Source: an uncultured Chloroflexia bacterium
GTDB taxonomy: Bacteria > Chloroflexota > Limnocylindria > Limnocylindrales > CSP1-4
Direction of reading: 5' to 3'
DNA: 64,000 nt
NCBI GenBank assembly: GCA_963712735.1
Contig: CAVQIZ010000002.1
Coordinates: forward strand, 186,791-250,790
Shown: one piece after another, positions 8,578 through 13,861 of the stretch
How the letters are laid out: the number at the start of each line of letters is the position of its first letter
Position numbering within the stretch: the stretch's first letter is position 1
The notes under the pieces: generated by a model
Databases searched by the model: none
Told to the model about the DNA's origin: nothing
The model's input: only the letters and a program-made list of their open reading frames with translations
Made by a program: the position numbers and the translations under genes

Positions 8578-9565
8578 ATGAGCACGCCCGCAGCCACCGC
8601 TCCGGACGCCGTCTCGGAAGACACGCGCCTGATGCTTCGGGCCGCGCAGCTCTACTACCACGGCGAGCTCACGCAGGACGCCATCGGCAAGCGCCTCGGC
8701 GTGAGCCGCTTCAAGGTCGGCCGACTGCTGGAGCGTGCCCTGCGCGAGGAGGCGGTGAGGATCGAGATCGTCCACCCGGCGTCACGACTGGTGGCCCTGG
8801 AAGACGCGCTCCGCGAACGCTTCGGCCTCGGCGAAGCCATCGTGGTGGACGTGCCCGCCGGAGGCGACCAGGCCGAAGACGAGCAGCTGGCGCGTGAGCG
8901 CGTCGCGGCCGCGGCCGCCGACCACCTGGCATTCGTCCGGCCGCAGGGCGTCATCGGCGTCTCCTGGGGTCGCACCATGCTGGAGCTGGCAGCCCGCCTG
9001 CAGCCGGGCTGGACGCAGGCCAGCCAGATCGTGCAGCTCAACGGCGCCATCTCGCGCTCGGCGCAGCCCACCCGCTACCAGGACGTGGTGGAGCGCTTCG
9101 GCAGCACCACCGGTGCCGGCATCCAGCTGATGCCGGCGCCGGCGATCGTCGGCAGCGCCGAGCTGCGGCGCGCGCTGGAGGCCGACCCGGCCGTCAGCCA
9201 GCCGTTGAAGGCCGCCCGCCGCGCCCCCACGGCCATCTTCGGCATGGGCGTCATGGGGCCCGAGAGCGTGCACGTGGCCTCCGGCTATCTCGATGCCAAG
9301 GCCCTCCGGCGGCTCGAGCGGGCCGGCGCCGTGGGCGACGTGCTGGGCCGCTTCATCACCATCGAGGGGCGCATCGCCCTGCGCGGTCTCGATGCACGCA
9401 CCGTCGGGCATGCCCCTCGACGAGCTGCAGGGCAAGCGGCTCACGCTGGGCCTGGCTGCCGGTCCCGGGCGCGGACCCATCGCCCTGGCCGCGCTGCGCG
9501 CAGGCTGCATGAACACCTTCGTGACTGACGAAGCCACGGCCGAGTGGGTGCTCGAGCATGACTGA
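8578..9565 (+). CDS. SorC/DeoR-family sugar-binding transcriptional regulator (frameshift near 9410)
   Basis: HTH LTQDAIGKRLGVSRFKVGRLLERA plus SorC sugar-binding domain (GVSWGRT...GMGV...); C-terminal 45 aa (MPLDELQGKRLTLGLAAGPGRG...[15 protein letters not shown]) lie in the +1 frame. Confidence 0.75.
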
Positions 9566-10140
9566 CCAGCGCAGCCCTTCGGCCGATGAGGTGCGGGCGC
9601 TGGTGCGCCGCATCGTCGATCAGACGCTCGAGACGAGCGCGCAGCCAACGCCAGCCGCACGACGGCCGGGTGGTGGTGGCCATCGCCGGCGACCACGGAG
9701 GCTGGCGCATGAAGGACGCCATCGGCAGCTGGCTCACGGAGCACGGCTACGGGGTGCGGGACTGCGGCACGGATAGTGACGAGGCCGTGGACTACCCCGA
9801 CTACGCGCTGGCGGTGGCCCGGCTGGTGGCCGATGGTTCGTGTCGCTGGGGCATCGTCGTCGACGGCGCCGGTATCGGCTCGGCCATGGCGGCCACCAAG
9901 GTGCCCGGGGTGCGTGCCGCCAACTGCCACGACCTCTCCTCGGCGCGCAACAGCCGCGAGCACAACTACGCCAACGTCCTCACCCTGGGCGCCGGCTTCC
10001 TGGGCACGGCCCTGGCCCTCCAGATCGTGGAGACCTGGCTGGCGACCGACTGGGGTGCCGAACGACACGGCGCCCGCGTAGACAAGATCACCGCCATCGA
10101 GCGCTCCTACAGCGGCGCCAGCGAGGGAAAGGACCGATGA
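9558..10140 (+). CDS. rpiB: ribose-5-phosphate isomerase B-family (RpiB/LacAB) enzyme with N-terminal encapsulation-peptide-like extension (frameshift ~9660)
   Basis: ATG 9558 overlaps the sorC stop; [34 protein letters not shown] (amphipathic helix + linker) in one frame, then [33 protein letters not shown]...ANCHD (RpiB core) in the next; shift inside GGTGGTGGTGG. Confidence 0.75.
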
Positions 10141-11024
10141 CCGACACCATCGACAATCGCGACGCACTCGTGGAGGCCATCACGCGCGAGGTGCTCGCCG
10201 CACTCGGCTCCGGCAGCCCGGCGGCCGATCCGAGCGACCCCTGCGCCGGCTGCCTGCAGAGCTGCGCGGCGCAGTGCGCCACCAAGGTGCGCTCGCTGAT
10301 GGCCGGCGGTGCCGACCGCATCGAGTACCACGGGCCGGCCAACGAGGTGCCGCTCGACCTCGCGCGCTACATCGACCACACGCTGCTGCGACCCGATGCC
10401 TCCGCGGCAGACATCGACAAGCTCTGTGACGAGGCCGCCGAGTACCACTTCGCCTCGGTCTGCGTGAACCCGACCTGGGTGCGGCGCGCTGCCACCCGCC
10501 TGCGCGACACCGATGTCGCGGTGGCGTCGGTCATCGGCTTCCCCTTCGGCGCCACGCCCTCCGATGTGAAGGCCTTCGAGGCTCGACGCGCCGTGCGCGA
10601 CGGCGCCCGCGAGATCGACATGGTCATCAACATCGGCGCGCTCAAGAGCGGCGACCACGACCTGGTGCGGCGCGACATCGCCCGCGTCTCGGACGCCTGC
10701 CACGAGGCCGGCGCCATCAACAAGGTCATCATCGAGACGGCGCTGCTGAGCGACGCCGAGAAGATCATCGCCTCGCGCCTCGCCGTCGAGGCCAGGGCGG
10801 ACATGGTCAAGACGTCCACCGGCTACGCCAAGGGCGGAGCCACCATCTACGACGTCGCGCTCATGCGCGAGACGGTCGGGCCCAAGCTGGGCGTCAAGGC
10901 GGCCGGCGGCATCCGCACGGCCGAGGATGTACAGGAGATGATCGCCGCCGGCGCCACCCGCATCGGTGCCTCGGCCGGCGTCACCATCGTCAGCGGACAG
11001 GGAGGCGCCAGTGGCCAGTATTGA
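10137..11024 (+). CDS. deoC: deoxyribose-phosphate aldolase (DeoC) with ~70-aa N-terminal extension (encapsulation-peptide-like helix + Cys-rich segment)
   Basis: ATGA overlap with rpiB; [50 protein letters not shown]... then DeoC core [14 protein letters not shown]...VIGFPFG...MVKTSTGY...KAAGGIRT (Schiff-base lysine region). Confidence 0.85.
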
Positions 11025-11637
11025 GCTCCGGGCATATTCATTCATCGACAGCCTGCAGGCCCAGTACGCGGCCTTCCTGGGCACCGTCGCGCAGGGCTTC
11101 CTGCCCCTCGCCGGCGACGCCTCGCTGTCGATCGAGATCTCGCCCGGCATCGAGATCAACCGCCTCACCGACGTGGCCCTCAAGTCCACGCAGGTGAAGC
11201 CGGGCATGCAGATCATCGAGCGCTACTACGGCATGCTGGAGGTCCACTCCCCCAGCCAGGCGGAGGTGCGCGCCGCCGGCGCTGCCATCCTCGCCGAGAT
11301 GGGCCTGACGGAGACCGACCGCATCAAGCCGCGGGTGCTCTCGTCGCAGATCATCCGCCGCATCGACGACCACCAGGCGCAGCTCATCAACCGTACCCGG
11401 CACGGGCAGATGCTCATCCCGGGTCAGACGCTGTACGTGCTGGAGATGGAGCCCGCGGCCTACGCCGCCCTGGCCGCCAACGAGGCCGAGAAGGCAGCGG
11501 ACATCAACATCCTCGAAGTGCGCAACTTCGGCTCCATGGGCCGCATCTACCTCGGTGGCGAGGAGCGCGACATCGACGTCGGCTGGCGCGCCGCGCTGGC
11601 CGCGGTCGAGGGGCTGGAGGGTCGCGAGGCGAAGTAG
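11011..11637 (+). CDS. divergent tandem BMC-domain shell protein (BMC-T-like)
   Basis: GTG 11011 after GGAGG. Two halves each align to the PduA fold: ...[34 protein letters not shown]...[10 protein letters not shown] and [61 protein letters not shown]. Confidence 0.5.
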
Positions 11638-11703
11638 CAGCGGCCGATCGGGCAGCACACCAGAGAGACGAGTCAGACAGGCAACGCAAGGGAGAACGAA
11701 GAG

Positions 11704-12018: not shown

Positions 12019-12087
12019 CGCAGGTGGGGCGCATCGGGCCCACGGGCCTGGTGCGCCACTCCCCTGCCCCTGACAGGCGGTAGAACG

Positions 12088-12375
12088 ATGTTGCTCGGAC
12101 GAGTGACCGGCACGGTGGTGGCCAGCCGCAAGGAGCCACTGACCGAGGGCTGGAAGCTCCTCGTCGTGCGCCAGCTCGACGCGGAGGACAAGGAGACCGG
12201 CGGCTATGTCGTGGCGGCCGATGCGGTCGGCGCGGGCGTGGGCGAGGTGGTGCTGTACGCGAGCGGCAGCTCCGCGCGCAATACCGAGACCACCCGCGAC
12301 AAGCCCTGCGACGCGGTGATCATGGCCATCGTCGACACCTGGGAGATCGAGGGGAAGGAGATCTACCGCAAGTAG
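12088..12375 (+). CDS. BMC-P vertex protein (EutN/PduN/CcmL family), copy 1
   Basis: [30 protein letters not shown]...[24 protein letters not shown] matches EutN_CcmL fold. Confidence 0.9.
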
Positions 12376-12405
12376 CCGGTCACCGGCTGGGCGCGGGCAC
12401 GACGC

Positions 12406-13861
12406 ATGGACGAACGCGAGATCGCGCAGATCATCGAACGGGTGCGGGGCCGCCTGGCGGCGGCCGACGGGGCACGCCCCGGGGCCGGCATGCAGGCCGC
12501 CGCCGAGGTGGCGCAGGCCGCCGAGGCGGAGCTGGGCGACGGCATCCACGCGAGCGTCGATGACGCCGTTGCCGCCGCCACGCGCGCGTTCCGTGCCTTC
12601 GGCGACAGCGGCCTCGGCACCCGCAAGGCCGTCATCGAGGCGGTCCGCGCCTCGATGCTGGCTCACGCGGAGCAGCTGGCCCGCATGGCCCATCTCGAGA
12701 CCGGCATCGGCCGCTACGAGGACAAGGTCGTCAAGAACCGGCTGGTGACCACCAAGGCGCCGGGGCCAGAGGACCTCGAGGTCGCAGGCCGTCAGTGGCG
12801 ACCAGGGCATGATGGTCACCGAGTGGGCGCCCTTCGGGGTCGTGGGCGCCATCAGCCCGGTGACCAACCCCACCTCGACCGTCATCAACAACACCATCAG
12901 CATCGTCTCGGCCGGGAACGCGGTGGTCTTCAACGCACACCCATCGGCGCGAGCCTGCTCGGCAGAGACCATCCGGCTCATCAACCGCGCCATCGTCGGC
13001 GCCGGCGGACCGCCCGACCTGGTCACCGGCGTCGCCGTCCCCACCATCGACACGGCGCGCGCGCTGATGAACCACCCCGGCGTGCGCGTGCTGCTCGTCA
13101 CCGGCGGCCCCGGCGTGGTGCGGGAGGCCCTGCGCACGGACAAGCGCGCCATCACCGCCGGTCCCGGCAATCCGCCCGCGGTGGTGGACCAGACCGCCGA
13201 CATCGAGCGCGCCGCGGCCGACATCGTGCGCGGCGCGTCGTTCGACAACAACCTCGTCTGTATCGACGAGAAGGTCGTGCTGGCGGTCGACAGCATCGCC
13301 GACCGCCTGCTGCGAGCCATGAGCCAGCGGGGCGCCTATCTGCTCAAGGAGCACGAGCTGCGACGCCTGGAGCGCGTCATCTTCAAGGAGCTGGGCCCGC
13401 CCGGCAAGCCCGGCGTGATGAACCCGGCCTGGATCGGCAAGGACGCCTCGAAGATCCTGGCCGAGATCGGCGTGCAGGCAGAACCCGAGCCGCGGCTGCT
13501 GGTGGCCGACGTGCCGCGCGAGCACAGCCTCGCCTGGACCGAGCAGATGATGCCGGTGCTGCCGGTCGTGCGCGTGGGCAACGTCGAGACGGCCATCGAG
13601 CTGGCGGTGCGCATGGAGCACGGCTTCCACCACACGGCCTCCATCCACTCCACCAACGTCGATGCCATCACGCGCATGGCCCGCGCCATGAACTGCAGCA
13701 TCTTCGTGGCCAACGGGCCCAATCTCGCGGGCCTCGGGGCCGGTGGCGAGGGCTTCACCTCGTTCTCCATCGCCTCGCCCACCGGCGACGGCATGACGCG
13801 GCCGCGGACGTTCTCGCGCGAGCGACGGGTCACCGTCGTGGGCGCGCTGAGGATCGTGTAG
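12406..13861 (+). CDS. CoA-acylating aldehyde dehydrogenase (PduP/EutE-like) with N-terminal encapsulation-peptide-like helix; frameshift ~12786
   Basis: [17 protein letters not shown]... then, in the +1 frame from ~12790: [50 protein letters not shown]...[11 protein letters not shown]...(catalytic Cys region); 1-nt insertion after LEV. Confidence 0.85.

Follow-up and report, generated by a model that had tools for sequence, protein, structure and literature searches.

We suggest that the DNA analysed here carries the enzyme half of a sugar-phosphate-utilising (SPU) type microcompartment operon from an uncultured, high-GC Chloroflexota bacterium, that its three cargo enzymes bear encapsulation tags, that its broken reading frames are errors of assembly, and that a four-cysteine motif in the tag extension of DeoC (DERA) would form a metal site, preferably holding an iron-sulfur (Fe-S) cluster. 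To this statement as a whole we assign a probability of roughly 0.45. The tag architecture of SPU DERA, RpiB-like protein (RPI) and aldehyde dehydrogenase (AldDH) is already known, having been published in 2024 (PMC11585597); the DERA tag extension holds in addition a widely conserved four-Cys motif, of which we found no mention in any paper.

The microcompartment locus

The window is the whole stretch analysed, 64,000 nucleotides in length, and all features described below lie on its forward strand. The operon runs from a SorC regulator through the RpiB-like gene and DeoC/DERA to shell genes, AldDH and further shell genes, an order common to loci L001-L012, L081 and L084-L085, and the window yields Pfam matches to LacAB_rpiB, DeoC, Aldedh, BMC and EutN_CcmL (three pentamers). 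We hold it very probable that this is an SPU locus with encapsulation tags.

The first gene (8578..9562) encodes a SorC-family sugar-binding transcription regulator (Pfam Sugar-bind PF04198, E 1.5e-39), whose stop overlaps the RpiB start (ATGA). The RpiB-like gene (9558..10140; Pfam LacAB_rpiB, E 1.9e-48, for 9661-10137) overlaps in the same manner, ATGA, with the start of an intact 295-aa DERA gene (10137..11024). There follow a double-stacking, CsoS1D-like BMC-T (11011..11637; BMC domain match, the identical L083 protein having PF27545 CsoS1D_N), a BMC-H shell hexamer (11704..12018; Pfam BMC, E 1.2e-30), a first BMC-P shell pentamer (12088..12375; Pfam EutN_CcmL, E 9.6e-29), an acylating AldDH (12406..13861; Pfam Aldedh matches both halves), a PduT-like tandem BMC-T (13861..14475; its L002 orthologue has two BMC domains), and a second and a third BMC-P pentamer (14480-14771 and 14768-15043, the latter with a Pfam EutN_CcmL match).

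In DERA, which is 61% identical to B. halodurans DERA 6d33 (Foldseek), residues D161, K225 and K254 are invariant. The RPI active-site stretch IVVDGAGIG (9853..9879) has an Asp at the position of the catalytic Cys66 of E. coli RpiB, as do most fetched RPI homologues, and this substitution has been reported for all SPU RPIs (PMC11585597). The RPI protein would act as a partner of DERA, and the acylating AldDH, with its catalytic Cys within 13241-13273, would convert acetaldehyde to acetyl-CoA.

The closest known system is the SPU microcompartment and its cargo (Dwyer, Sutter & Kerfeld 2024, PMC11585597; Sutter 2021, PMC8217296; Axen 2014, PMC4207490), with which the window shares PF01791 DERA, PF02502 RPI with Cys-to-Asp, PF00171 AldDH, three BMC-P genes and an RPI gene adjoining that of DERA. 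Unlike the published SPU loci, it is without PduS, PTAC and alcohol dehydrogenase, its regulator is of the SorC and not the GntR family, and it has both a CsoS1D-like and a PduT-like BMC-T; among the seven SPU subtypes we place it at the level of SPU type only.

Frame breaks

As written, the window encodes no helix-RpiB fusion, since the RPI helix and linker lie in frame 0 (from 9558) and the catalytic core in frame +1 (9664 onward), with an extra base near 9653. The SorC gene changes frame at 9406, where it has one base more than L001, L084 and L085; the AldDH frame is shifted by an extra base at 12783; the PduT-like BMC-T gene has extra bases at 13866, 14067 and 14258, and the second pentamer gene has one at 14583. 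The original prediction overlooked the split of RpiB helix and core between frames, and the AldDH frameshift.

These breaks, in RpiB, AldDH and four other operon genes, are in our judgement very probably assembly errors. In about 5 kb (5.2 kb) the window has seven 1-nt insertions that the 97.9%-identical contig L085 lacks, but no deletions and no in-frame stops; once the insertions are removed all nine genes are open, with 84 synonymous and 14 nonsynonymous codon differences from L085. It is because the insertions are absent from L085, and because of this ratio, that they look like assembly errors, and further single-base insertions at 4321-4864 and about 62683 point to a general pattern of consensus error. 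In close relatives the RPI gene is a single 193-aa ORF with its helix in frame (L001, L002, L084 and L085) and AldDH an intact 484-aa ORF (L002, L084 and L085). It could be argued that the frameshifts are real and the operon recently decayed, with AldDH truncated and RpiB either absent or made untagged from an internal GTG (about 9669): the insertions are, after all, present in the window as given, GTG codons fall exactly at the start of the RpiB core, and another assembly, L001, has its own break in AldDH. Such decay is very hard to square with insertions only, without a stop, in genes that all open when the extra bases are removed, with a synonymous excess that persists downstream of the breaks, and with similar insertions elsewhere in the window, and we regard it as highly improbable.

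Probable encapsulation tags on the cargo enzymes

Each of the three cargo proteins would start with an amphipathic helix of 15-20 residues on a poorly conserved linker. The RPI helix (9579..9632), followed by a linker TSAQPTP..., has a motif, [DE]x[DE][IV]RxLVxR[IV]V, that has been conserved in loci from Chloroflexota, Acidimicrobiia and Anaerolineae. That of DERA (10158..10208) is nearly invariant in 120 homologues. In AldDH, where Pfam Aldedh starts at residue 42-44, the helix (12412..12456; motif [DE]xEIQxIIERV, conserved in related loci) precedes an Ala/Gly/Pro-rich linker reaching to about 12543. Its N-terminal position is that reported for every SPU subtype except SPU6, and the Anaerolineae (SPU6-type) AldDHs have their tag at the C-terminus instead, in agreement with PMC11585597. 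All three helices are conserved in homologous loci, but in the window itself that of RpiB does not share a frame with its catalytic core.

The amphipathicity of the tags is moderate. Their hydrophobic moments (muH 0.65, 0.42 and 0.65 for RPI, DERA and AldDH) are similar to that of the EutC tag (0.52) and exceed those of shuffles only modestly, 5-10% of the shuffles attaining them. AlphaFold (AF2) placed the DERA tag helix at residues 8-22 and 3-24 in two runs with pLDDT 57-71. What really speaks for the helices is that they are conserved and that non-BMC paralogues lack them: the DeoC proteins of Arthrobacter, Thermococcus, Paenibacillus and Planococcus, with no BMC genes nearby, begin at the core, and the housekeeping rpiB (62665..63106; itself frameshifted by the extra base near 62683) starts MRIAVG without an extension, as had been proposed, and has GGSGTGEQ where the SPU copy has DGAGIG.

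This is the architecture of the PduP, PduD and EutC tags (Fan 2010; Aussignargues 2015, cited in PMC11585597), which likewise pair a short N-terminal amphipathic helix with a poorly conserved linker and do not occur in non-compartment homologues; the DERA helix aligns with the N-terminal tag of E. coli EutC, IEEIVRSVMASMG, in a weak match (E about 1) that is suggestive only. All SPU DERAs have been reported to bear an N-terminal extension, the protein being soluble after deletion of about 70 residues, and SPU RPI to have an N-terminal encapsulation peptide (PMC11585597). The reading of helix plus linker as encapsulation peptide is borne out by its retention in BMC loci, its absence from non-BMC DeoC and the published work. 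From what has been published for the cargo of SPU, Pdu and Eut compartments we infer the function: the helix would cluster the cargo and dock it to the shell.

The DERA extension and its four-cysteine motif

Since Pfam DeoC starts only at residue 78 (the match spans residues 78-282), the window DERA has about 75 extra N-terminal residues, which we read as tag helix, variable linker, four-Cys motif and a helix-strand segment. As in the published SPU cargo, DERA has an extension of roughly 70 residues that opens with an amphipathic helix, and RPI has a helix plus linker; the published SPU description gives "a helix and two low-confidence strands" and, unlike ours, includes neither the four-Cys motif nor the segment that follows it. 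These two conserved elements between linker and enzyme also set the DERA extension apart from the PduP, PduD and EutC tags, which consist of helix plus linker only.

The Gly/Ser/Pro/Ala linker (11 residues; 10209..10241) differs in length and sequence even among close homologues; in other lineages a whole flavoprotein domain occupies its position, and in RPI-DERA fusions the RPI domain lies upstream of the Cys motif. The segment after the motif, V..V.AGA.R[IV] (10278..10334; G58 and R61 invariant), is similar to the alpha7-beta8 unit of DERA itself (10917-10979): when extension and core were aligned with hhalign, the probability was 84% (P 7.4e-6; 36.3 observed, valid column shuffles at most 13.8). 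The four-Cys site would then sit between a flexible tag and an alpha7-beta8-like segment. AF2 modelled residues 25-74 at pLDDT 29-56, its two runs differing, helix against coil, for the Cys motif.

The motif itself, predicted as C-x2-C-x3-C-x3-C, was found as C36-x2-C39-x3-C43-x3-C47 (10242..10277), outside the Pfam DeoC domain, and is present in 118 of 120 close DERA homologues (74-100% identity), with C36, C39 and C43 invariant and C47 at least 90% conserved. This conservation, together with the low probability that a given 12-mer holds four Cys (P between about 5e-6 and 7e-5), means that the motif is not a product of chance. More widely, extension-bearing DERAs have at least four Cys in 42 of 62 representatives of 50% clusters and in 36 of 62 genome loci (58-68%), the modal count being exactly four, and a four-Cys cluster recurs at the equivalent position across phyla with spacings that vary by clade (2-3-3, 3-4-3, n-2-2). 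Both extensions and cysteines are thus kept in homologous BMC loci. The Cys have been wholly lost, with the rest of the extension retained, in Acidimicrobiia L006-L009 and in L029, L062, L066 and L067, and the site must hence be dispensable for encapsulation and catalysis.

Possible nature of the cysteine site

We posit, from sequence patterns, that the motif is probably a metal site, the four Cys ligating a cofactor that would fold the junction of tag and enzyme into a compact knot. Were it instead a continuous helix, geometry would place the Cys in a stripe about 16 A long, so that no single chain could enclose one metal with the full set.

As to the metal, we tentatively favour an Fe-S cluster, which seems somewhat likelier than zinc. 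The four closely spaced Cys recall ferredoxin-type 4Fe-4S motifs; among relatives, CxxCGxC or CPGCxxxCxxxCP forms occur and 3-5 of 74 give ferredoxin-like Pfam 4Fe-4S matches, all below the Pfam cut-off (best E 1.5e-4). The window differs from ferredoxin in its spacing, C-x2-C-x3-C-x3-C-A against C-x2-C-x2-C-x3-CP, and its own motif has no Pfam match even at E <= 10. A structural Zn2+ that staples the tag tether to the enzyme, with no redox role, would explain why the count of four is conserved and the spacing is not, why some Acidobacteria have a Cys2His2 variant (CSPHHIAC), and why one relative has a weak zf-CXXC match (E 0.005-0.011); it also suits a locus without an Fe-S partner. Complete loss with the surrounding sequence kept, as seen repeatedly here, is typical of structural Zn sites. 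The motif lacks, however, the two CxxC knuckles with an intervening loop that make up zinc ribbons, and a single Zn is not usually bound by Cys packed four to 12 residues or arranged in CxxCxxC runs. The CxxCGxC form and trailing CP of relatives look ferredoxin-like, and the motif is commonest beside a flavoprotein domain; we consider zinc rather unlikely.

Redox-driven cross-linking has been proposed for redox-sensitive carboxysome scaffold proteins, and disulfides occur in CcmM SSUL modules. By this precedent the Cys might form reversible disulfides, within the chain or between cargo proteins, that cross-link or compact the cargo after shell closure. The first AF2 model put all four on one helix face in an 80-degree arc, which suits helix-helix pairing, and full-length SPU DERA aggregates and is soluble without its extension (PMC11585597). 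That helix is of low confidence and absent from the second run, however, and the presence of exactly four Cys, with variants that are ferredoxin-like or C2H2, suits metal ligation better, which makes disulfides improbable. We give slightly less credence still to the view that the motif holds no cofactor, plays no particular part in this organism and persists through drift as a remnant, whether of an ancestral fusion of flavoprotein and Cys-DERA or of a duplication within the protein. Dispensability in several lineages, a flanking segment that looks like a duplicated alpha7-beta8 unit and poor AF2 modelling of the region speak for such a remnant, but the Cys persist in 118 of the 120 homologues while the adjoining linker varies, four-Cys clusters are maintained across phyla despite re-spacing, and DeoC differs from that of L085 by 8 synonymous codons and 1 nonsynonymous codon.

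Redox exchange across the shell, suggested in the original prediction, is not supported: we found no PduS/MNdh-like gene in the window or its clade, and the PduT-like BMC-T has a His in its pore motif (TVHPGKF), HPGK standing where Fe-S-binding shell proteins have CPGK (PMC12747264). In both respects the locus is unlike known Fe-S microcompartment proteins (PduS/MNdh, PduT-like BMC-T), and among the fetched loci L031 alone combines a CPGK shell protein with a PduS-like ORF, yet its DERA lacks the Cys. The role of the favoured metal cofactor may instead be structural, or one of redox or oxygen sensing for cargo assembly, and not electron transfer through the shell.

Flavoprotein-DERA fusions have been noted for Hodarchaeales compartments (PMC12747264). 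Such fusions carry the motif in 27 of 33 cases, as C-x(4-8)-C-x2-C-G-x-C, and share with the window protein the succession of tag helix, Cys motif, conserved segment and DERA core; they differ in having a PF02441 flavoprotein domain between helix and motif, where the window protein has its 11-residue linker.

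The operon and its reading frames

The plus-strand operon at 8.6-15.0 kb of the window, whose G+C content is 70%, encodes a SorC-type regulator, an RpiB-like protein (RPI, 9558-10140), DeoC (DERA, 10137-11024, 295 aa), a CsoS1D-like BMC-T shell trimer, a BMC-H hexamer, a BMC-P pentamer, an acylating aldehyde dehydrogenase (AldDH, 12406-13861), a PduT-like BMC-T and two further BMC-P. By its enzymes and its three BMC-P genes the operon belongs to the sugar-phosphate-utilising (SPU) class of bacterial microcompartments (BMCs; PMC4207490, PMC8217296, PMC11585597), and the locus adds one more example to that known class. 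The BMC-H matches Pfam (PF00936) with an E-value of 1.2e-30, BMC-P1 and BMC-P3 match EutN_CcmL (PF03319), and BMC-P2 and the two BMC-T were recognised through homology to genes of the related locus L002. The signature aldolase matches Pfam DeoC (PF01791, E 1.8e-21), its catalytic residues D161, K225 and K254 are invariant and intact in the window, and Foldseek aligns its model with the DERA structure 6d33 at a TM-score of 0.96; its named relatives come from Chloroflexota metagenome-assembled genomes, and one database protein is 100% identical to it. The adjoining RPI gene, which overlaps that of DERA by ATGA, matches PF02502 (E 1.9e-48) and carries Asp in place of the catalytic Cys (IVVDGAGIG). 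The AldDH gene, with Pfam Aldedh (PF00171) on both halves, is frameshifted in the window and intact in L085, a contig closely related to the window operon.

As to subtype, the N-terminal tag on AldDH speaks against SPU6 and the missing PduS against the other subtypes as described; compared by their descriptions, none of the seven published subtypes (SPU1-7) fits the combination of features in the window. The operon (8578-15043) has an AldDH gene; genes for alcohol dehydrogenase, PduS/MNdh and phosphotransacylase are absent from it. By analogy with published SPU, Pdu and Eut work, deoxyribose 5-phosphate would be cleaved inside the shell, and the acetaldehyde then trapped as acetyl-CoA.

The original prediction, that all three cargo enzymes carry N-terminal helical extensions, is partly borne out, since two of these three genes contain frame errors. 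It had read RpiB and AldDH as continuous, and both readings cross breaks that went unnoticed: the 25-residue N-terminal peptide of RpiB does exist, in frame 0 from 9558, but the catalytic core lies in frame +1 from 9664, and AldDH is broken at 12783. L085 is 97.9% identical to the window across 8.3 kb, and every operon gene is intact there. Against it the window shows seven isolated extra bases (9406, 9653, 12783, 13866, 14067, 14258 and 14583) and no missing base before 14817, and the related loci L001, L002 and L084 side with L085 on the extra bases. When the seven bases are deleted, nine of nine genes are open and differ from L085 at 84 synonymous and 14 nonsynonymous codons, the pattern of purifying selection, also downstream of the breaks. 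Further single-base insertions occur at 4321, 4331, 4603 and 4864 and, near 62683, in the second rpiB; judged against close relatives, insertions, with no deletions among them, break nearly all operon genes as well as genes elsewhere in the window, and only some of the insertions fall in homopolymer runs. We consider it very probable that the breaks are assembly consensus errors and not signs of a decayed operon; the pattern looks like uncorrected long-read consensus error. With a spurious extra base roughly every 750 bp, gene calls in the operon need frame correction, after which the true RPI-like protein would be a single chain of 193 aa made up of helix, linker and core. In the window, DeoC and AldDH have their helix in frame with the enzyme; for RpiB it is out of frame there and in frame in L001, L002, L084 and L085. 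L001 has its own single-base deletion, at the equivalent of window 12943, which splits AldDH into calls of 208 and 264 aa, so that indel noise seems common to assemblies of this sample series.

Probable encapsulation helices on the cargo enzymes

DeoC itself (10137-11024) is intact, with a Pfam domain that begins at residue 78, and the Pfam domain of AldDH starts at residue 42-44, behind its tag peptide. Across 80 genome loci fetched by a DeoC profile, the helices recur as [DE]x[DE][IV]RxLVxR[IV]V on RPI, L[VI]Exx[TA]xx[VI]Lxx[LM] on DERA and [DE]xEIQxIIERV on AldDH. The linker behind each helix differs in length and sequence even among homologues of 74-100% identity; DERA differs in that additional conserved elements lie between its linker and the enzyme. 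DeoC proteins of Arthrobacter, Thermococcus, Paenibacillus and Planococcus begin at the core and have no shell genes nearby, and the second, housekeeping rpiB at 62665 starts MRIAVG and lacks the extension, as had been stated. For DeoC, RpiB and AldDH alike the terminal extension is missing from non-compartment relatives, for AldDH going by where the Pfam domain starts. Kept in homologous loci and absent outside compartments, the helix-linker extensions have, as proposed, the architecture of encapsulation peptides (EPs).

The predicted helices have the expected length (~15-20 residues) and amphipathic character, and AlphaFold2 (AF2) predicts that of DERA with a pLDDT of 57-71. Their hydrophobic moments (0.65, 0.42 and 0.65 for RPI, DERA and AldDH, similar to the 0.52 of the EutC tag) are reached by 5-10% of shuffles, a modest excess. 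Searched against the PDB, the DERA extension gave only matches of E ~1, one of which is a weak match of its helix to the N-terminus of E. coli EutC. In the Anaerolineae loci, AldDH is of another kind and is tagged at its C-terminus, as published for SPU6. The tag finding is correct, yet it was already known, and the tags are ordinary: all SPU DERAs have been described as N-terminally extended, SPU RPI as bearing a typical N-terminal EP and AldDH as likewise bearing an EP, and DERA becomes soluble when ~70 residues, the SPU6 DERA extension, are removed (Dwyer, Sutter & Kerfeld 2024, PMC11585597). Judging by the literature on the SPU, Pdu and Eut systems, the three helices would bring the cargo proteins together and anchor them at the shell.

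We also observed that in ten Acidobacteriota loci (L013, L022, L023, L027, L030, L040, L045, L046, L065 and L070) the short RPI helix is replaced by another N-terminal extension, with the consensus ITExDV...G..L.V..GAIVTPLARD.A.ER.V.L; no shell genes lie within 7 kb of the DERA and RPI pairs of these loci.

A conserved four-cysteine cluster in the DERA extension

Between the linker of DERA and its conserved segment (10278-10334) lies the motif C36/C39/C43/C47 (10242-10277). A 41-sequence alignment shows no variation at C36, C39 and C43 and a conservation of at least 90% at C47; all four are present in 118 of 120 close homologues. More distant DERAs have a Cys cluster at the same place, immediately upstream of a V..V.AGA.R[IV] segment, in agreement with the expected conservation of the motif in homologous loci. 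Counted over the 32 residues preceding that segment, at least four Cys occur in 42 of 62 extension-bearing representatives of 50%-identity clusters and in 36 of 62 extension-bearing genome loci; nine in each set have no Cys, and the commonest count is exactly four. The spacing depends on the clade: C-x2-C-x3-C-x3-C in the window clade and the Acidobacteria (there often CPGC...CP), C-x3-C-x4-C-x3-C in the Anaerolineae (the SPU6 clade, source of the published model enzyme, which is itself outside the fetched set), C-x(4-8)-C-x2-C-G-x-C in fusion proteins, and a Cys2His2 form, CSPHHIAC, in some Acidobacteria, while some Acidimicrobiia and Chloroflexota keep the rest of the extension with zero Cys. 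A ligand number held at four, with the distances between ligands free to change, speaks for a four-coordinate metal centre.

Many DERAs are fusions in the order tag helix, PF02441 flavoprotein domain, Cys motif, conserved segment and DERA core, and others have an RPI domain upstream of the Cys motif, so that an entire domain stands in other lineages at the place of the 11-residue linker of the window protein. Flavoprotein fusions number 38 among the best 150 cluster representatives. Those with the conserved segment have at least four Cys in 27 of 33 cases, against 12 of 23 for simple architectures. A 2025 preprint called the flavoprotein-DERA fusion uncommon in bacterial compartments; P0134, P0136, P0138, P0148, P0155, P0157, P0161 and P0176, among other DERA cluster representatives, are bacterial proteins of 400-530 aa with the order helix-PF02441-Cys4-DERA.

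The conserved segment resembles part of the enzyme itself. A hidden Markov model of the extension alone, run against 10,591 ORFs, also matches the C-terminal α7-β8 unit of DERAs, non-compartment ones included (i-E 4e-5 to 1e-2), and a profile-profile alignment (hhalign) of 121 extensions with 211 cores covers 24 columns with a probability of 84% and P 7.4e-6. The aligned consensus is ~c~d~Vr~vV~AGAdRIgs~~G in the extension, against R~~~da~~MI~ and a further 12 residues in the core; in the window, the 19-residue segment at 10278-10334 resembles the 21 residues of DERA α7-β8 at 10917-10979. The observed score is 36.3 against at most 13.8 in valid column shuffles, five artefactual shuffle scores of ~130 on 7-column alignments having been set aside. 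From this likeness, the conserved half of the extension may be a duplicated last β-α unit preceding β1, an internal partial duplication, and the segment may equal the "two low-confidence strands" of the published SPU DERA model.

Among the papers that could be searched or read, none deals with cysteines, a metal or Fe-S in the extension of SPU DERA, and to that extent the four-Cys site and the α7-β8-like repeat are undescribed details. The site is the new lead here, the tags themselves bringing nothing new. The majority of DERAs with the extension carry it, across phyla, and many lineages show it tightly tied to a fused flavoprotein domain. It could reveal a cofactor within a targeting extension, or account for the insolubility of the full-length enzyme upon aerobic expression in E. 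coli. Few bacterial organelles are as widespread as SPU compartments, and behind the interest of the site stand the questions of their cargo assembly and of NAD+ recycling where a locus lacks PduS or alcohol dehydrogenase.

Candidate cofactors

We tentatively suggest that the cluster may bind an Fe-S centre. The CxxCGxC and CP forms of relatives look ferredoxin-like, the motif goes together with the flavoprotein domain, and Fer4 matches occur in 3-5 of the extension segments of 74 relatives, all below the Pfam gathering score (best E 1.5e-4). The window motif reads C-x2-C-x3-C-x3-C-A, and no ferredoxin-type signature C-x2-C-x2-C-x3-C-P was found above the Pfam threshold; no Pfam family matches the window extension or its motif at E <= 10. 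Zinc, a rather doubtful alternative, would agree with the Cys2His2 variant, with the repeated loss of the motif and with the lack of an Fe-S partner in the locus, and one relative matches zf-CXXC weakly. The window protein, with a single CxxC followed by Cx3C, has neither the two CxxC or CxxH units and loop of a zinc ribbon or knuckle nor a match to any zinc-finger model. That the cysteines form a disulfide switch is improbable, and that they have no function is slightly more so. The c-type haem motif CxxCH, seen in a few Acidimicrobiia relatives, was rejected, being unconserved and in a cytoplasmic protein.

AF2 was run with 41 close homologues and with 37 more diverse sequences. Both models have a confident core and an extension at pLDDT 29-71; structure prediction supports a helix for the DERA tag, but residues 25-74 score 29-56, and one model shows the motif as helix, the other as coil, which makes the models unusable for site geometry. 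Foldseek against the PDB returned DERA cores only, leaving the first ~75 residues uncovered.

A metal bound by the cluster would fold the junction between tether and enzyme, in a role that could be structural or redox-sensing. More speculatively, the SPU DERA extension might be a cofactor-bearing assembly module, a reading to which, taking its parts jointly, we give a probability of roughly 25%. An Fe-S cluster would then sit between the encapsulation helix and the duplicated α7-β8 element, possibly spanning the two chains of the DERA dimer as it does the two halves of a 2x[4Fe-4S] ferredoxin; in the flavoprotein-DERA fusions it would be paired with the flavin, cargo condensation or DERA activity would be coupled to redox or oxygen state, and the flavoprotein-bearing lineages could use the module in luminal NAD+ regeneration. 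If true, no targeting extension of a microcompartment protein would have been found to house a cofactor site before this one.

No support for trans-shell redox exchange; neighboring genes

The further suggestion that the cysteines serve redox exchange across the shell found no support in this locus. Fe-S-binding shell proteins carry CPGK (PMC12747264), whereas the PduT-like BMC-T of the window (13861-14475) reads TVHPGKF, with His at the pore position, as do those of the related loci L001-L012 and L081; neither a PduS-like ORF (PduS/MNdh-like in the window) nor a Cys-pore BMC-T was found in the window clade. Of the fetched loci, only L031 combines CPGK with a PduS-like ORF, and its DERA is Cys-less. 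For these reasons a trans-shell electron relay was dropped for the window locus.

Three His would line the pore of the PduT-like BMC-T trimer. The only classical 12-residue ferredoxin motif in the window is in a small minus-strand ORF at about 59688-60050, 45 kb from the operon. A minus-strand ORF at 6629-7120 has repeated GGxGNDxxxG units and resembles haemolysin-type calcium-binding repeats. Converging on the operon from the minus strand is a P-type cation ATPase (14648-17872), whose ORF continues through the opposite-strand BMC-P3 gene; its orthologues measure at least 908 aa in L002 and at least 920 aa in L085, where the calls reach the edge of the fetched locus.
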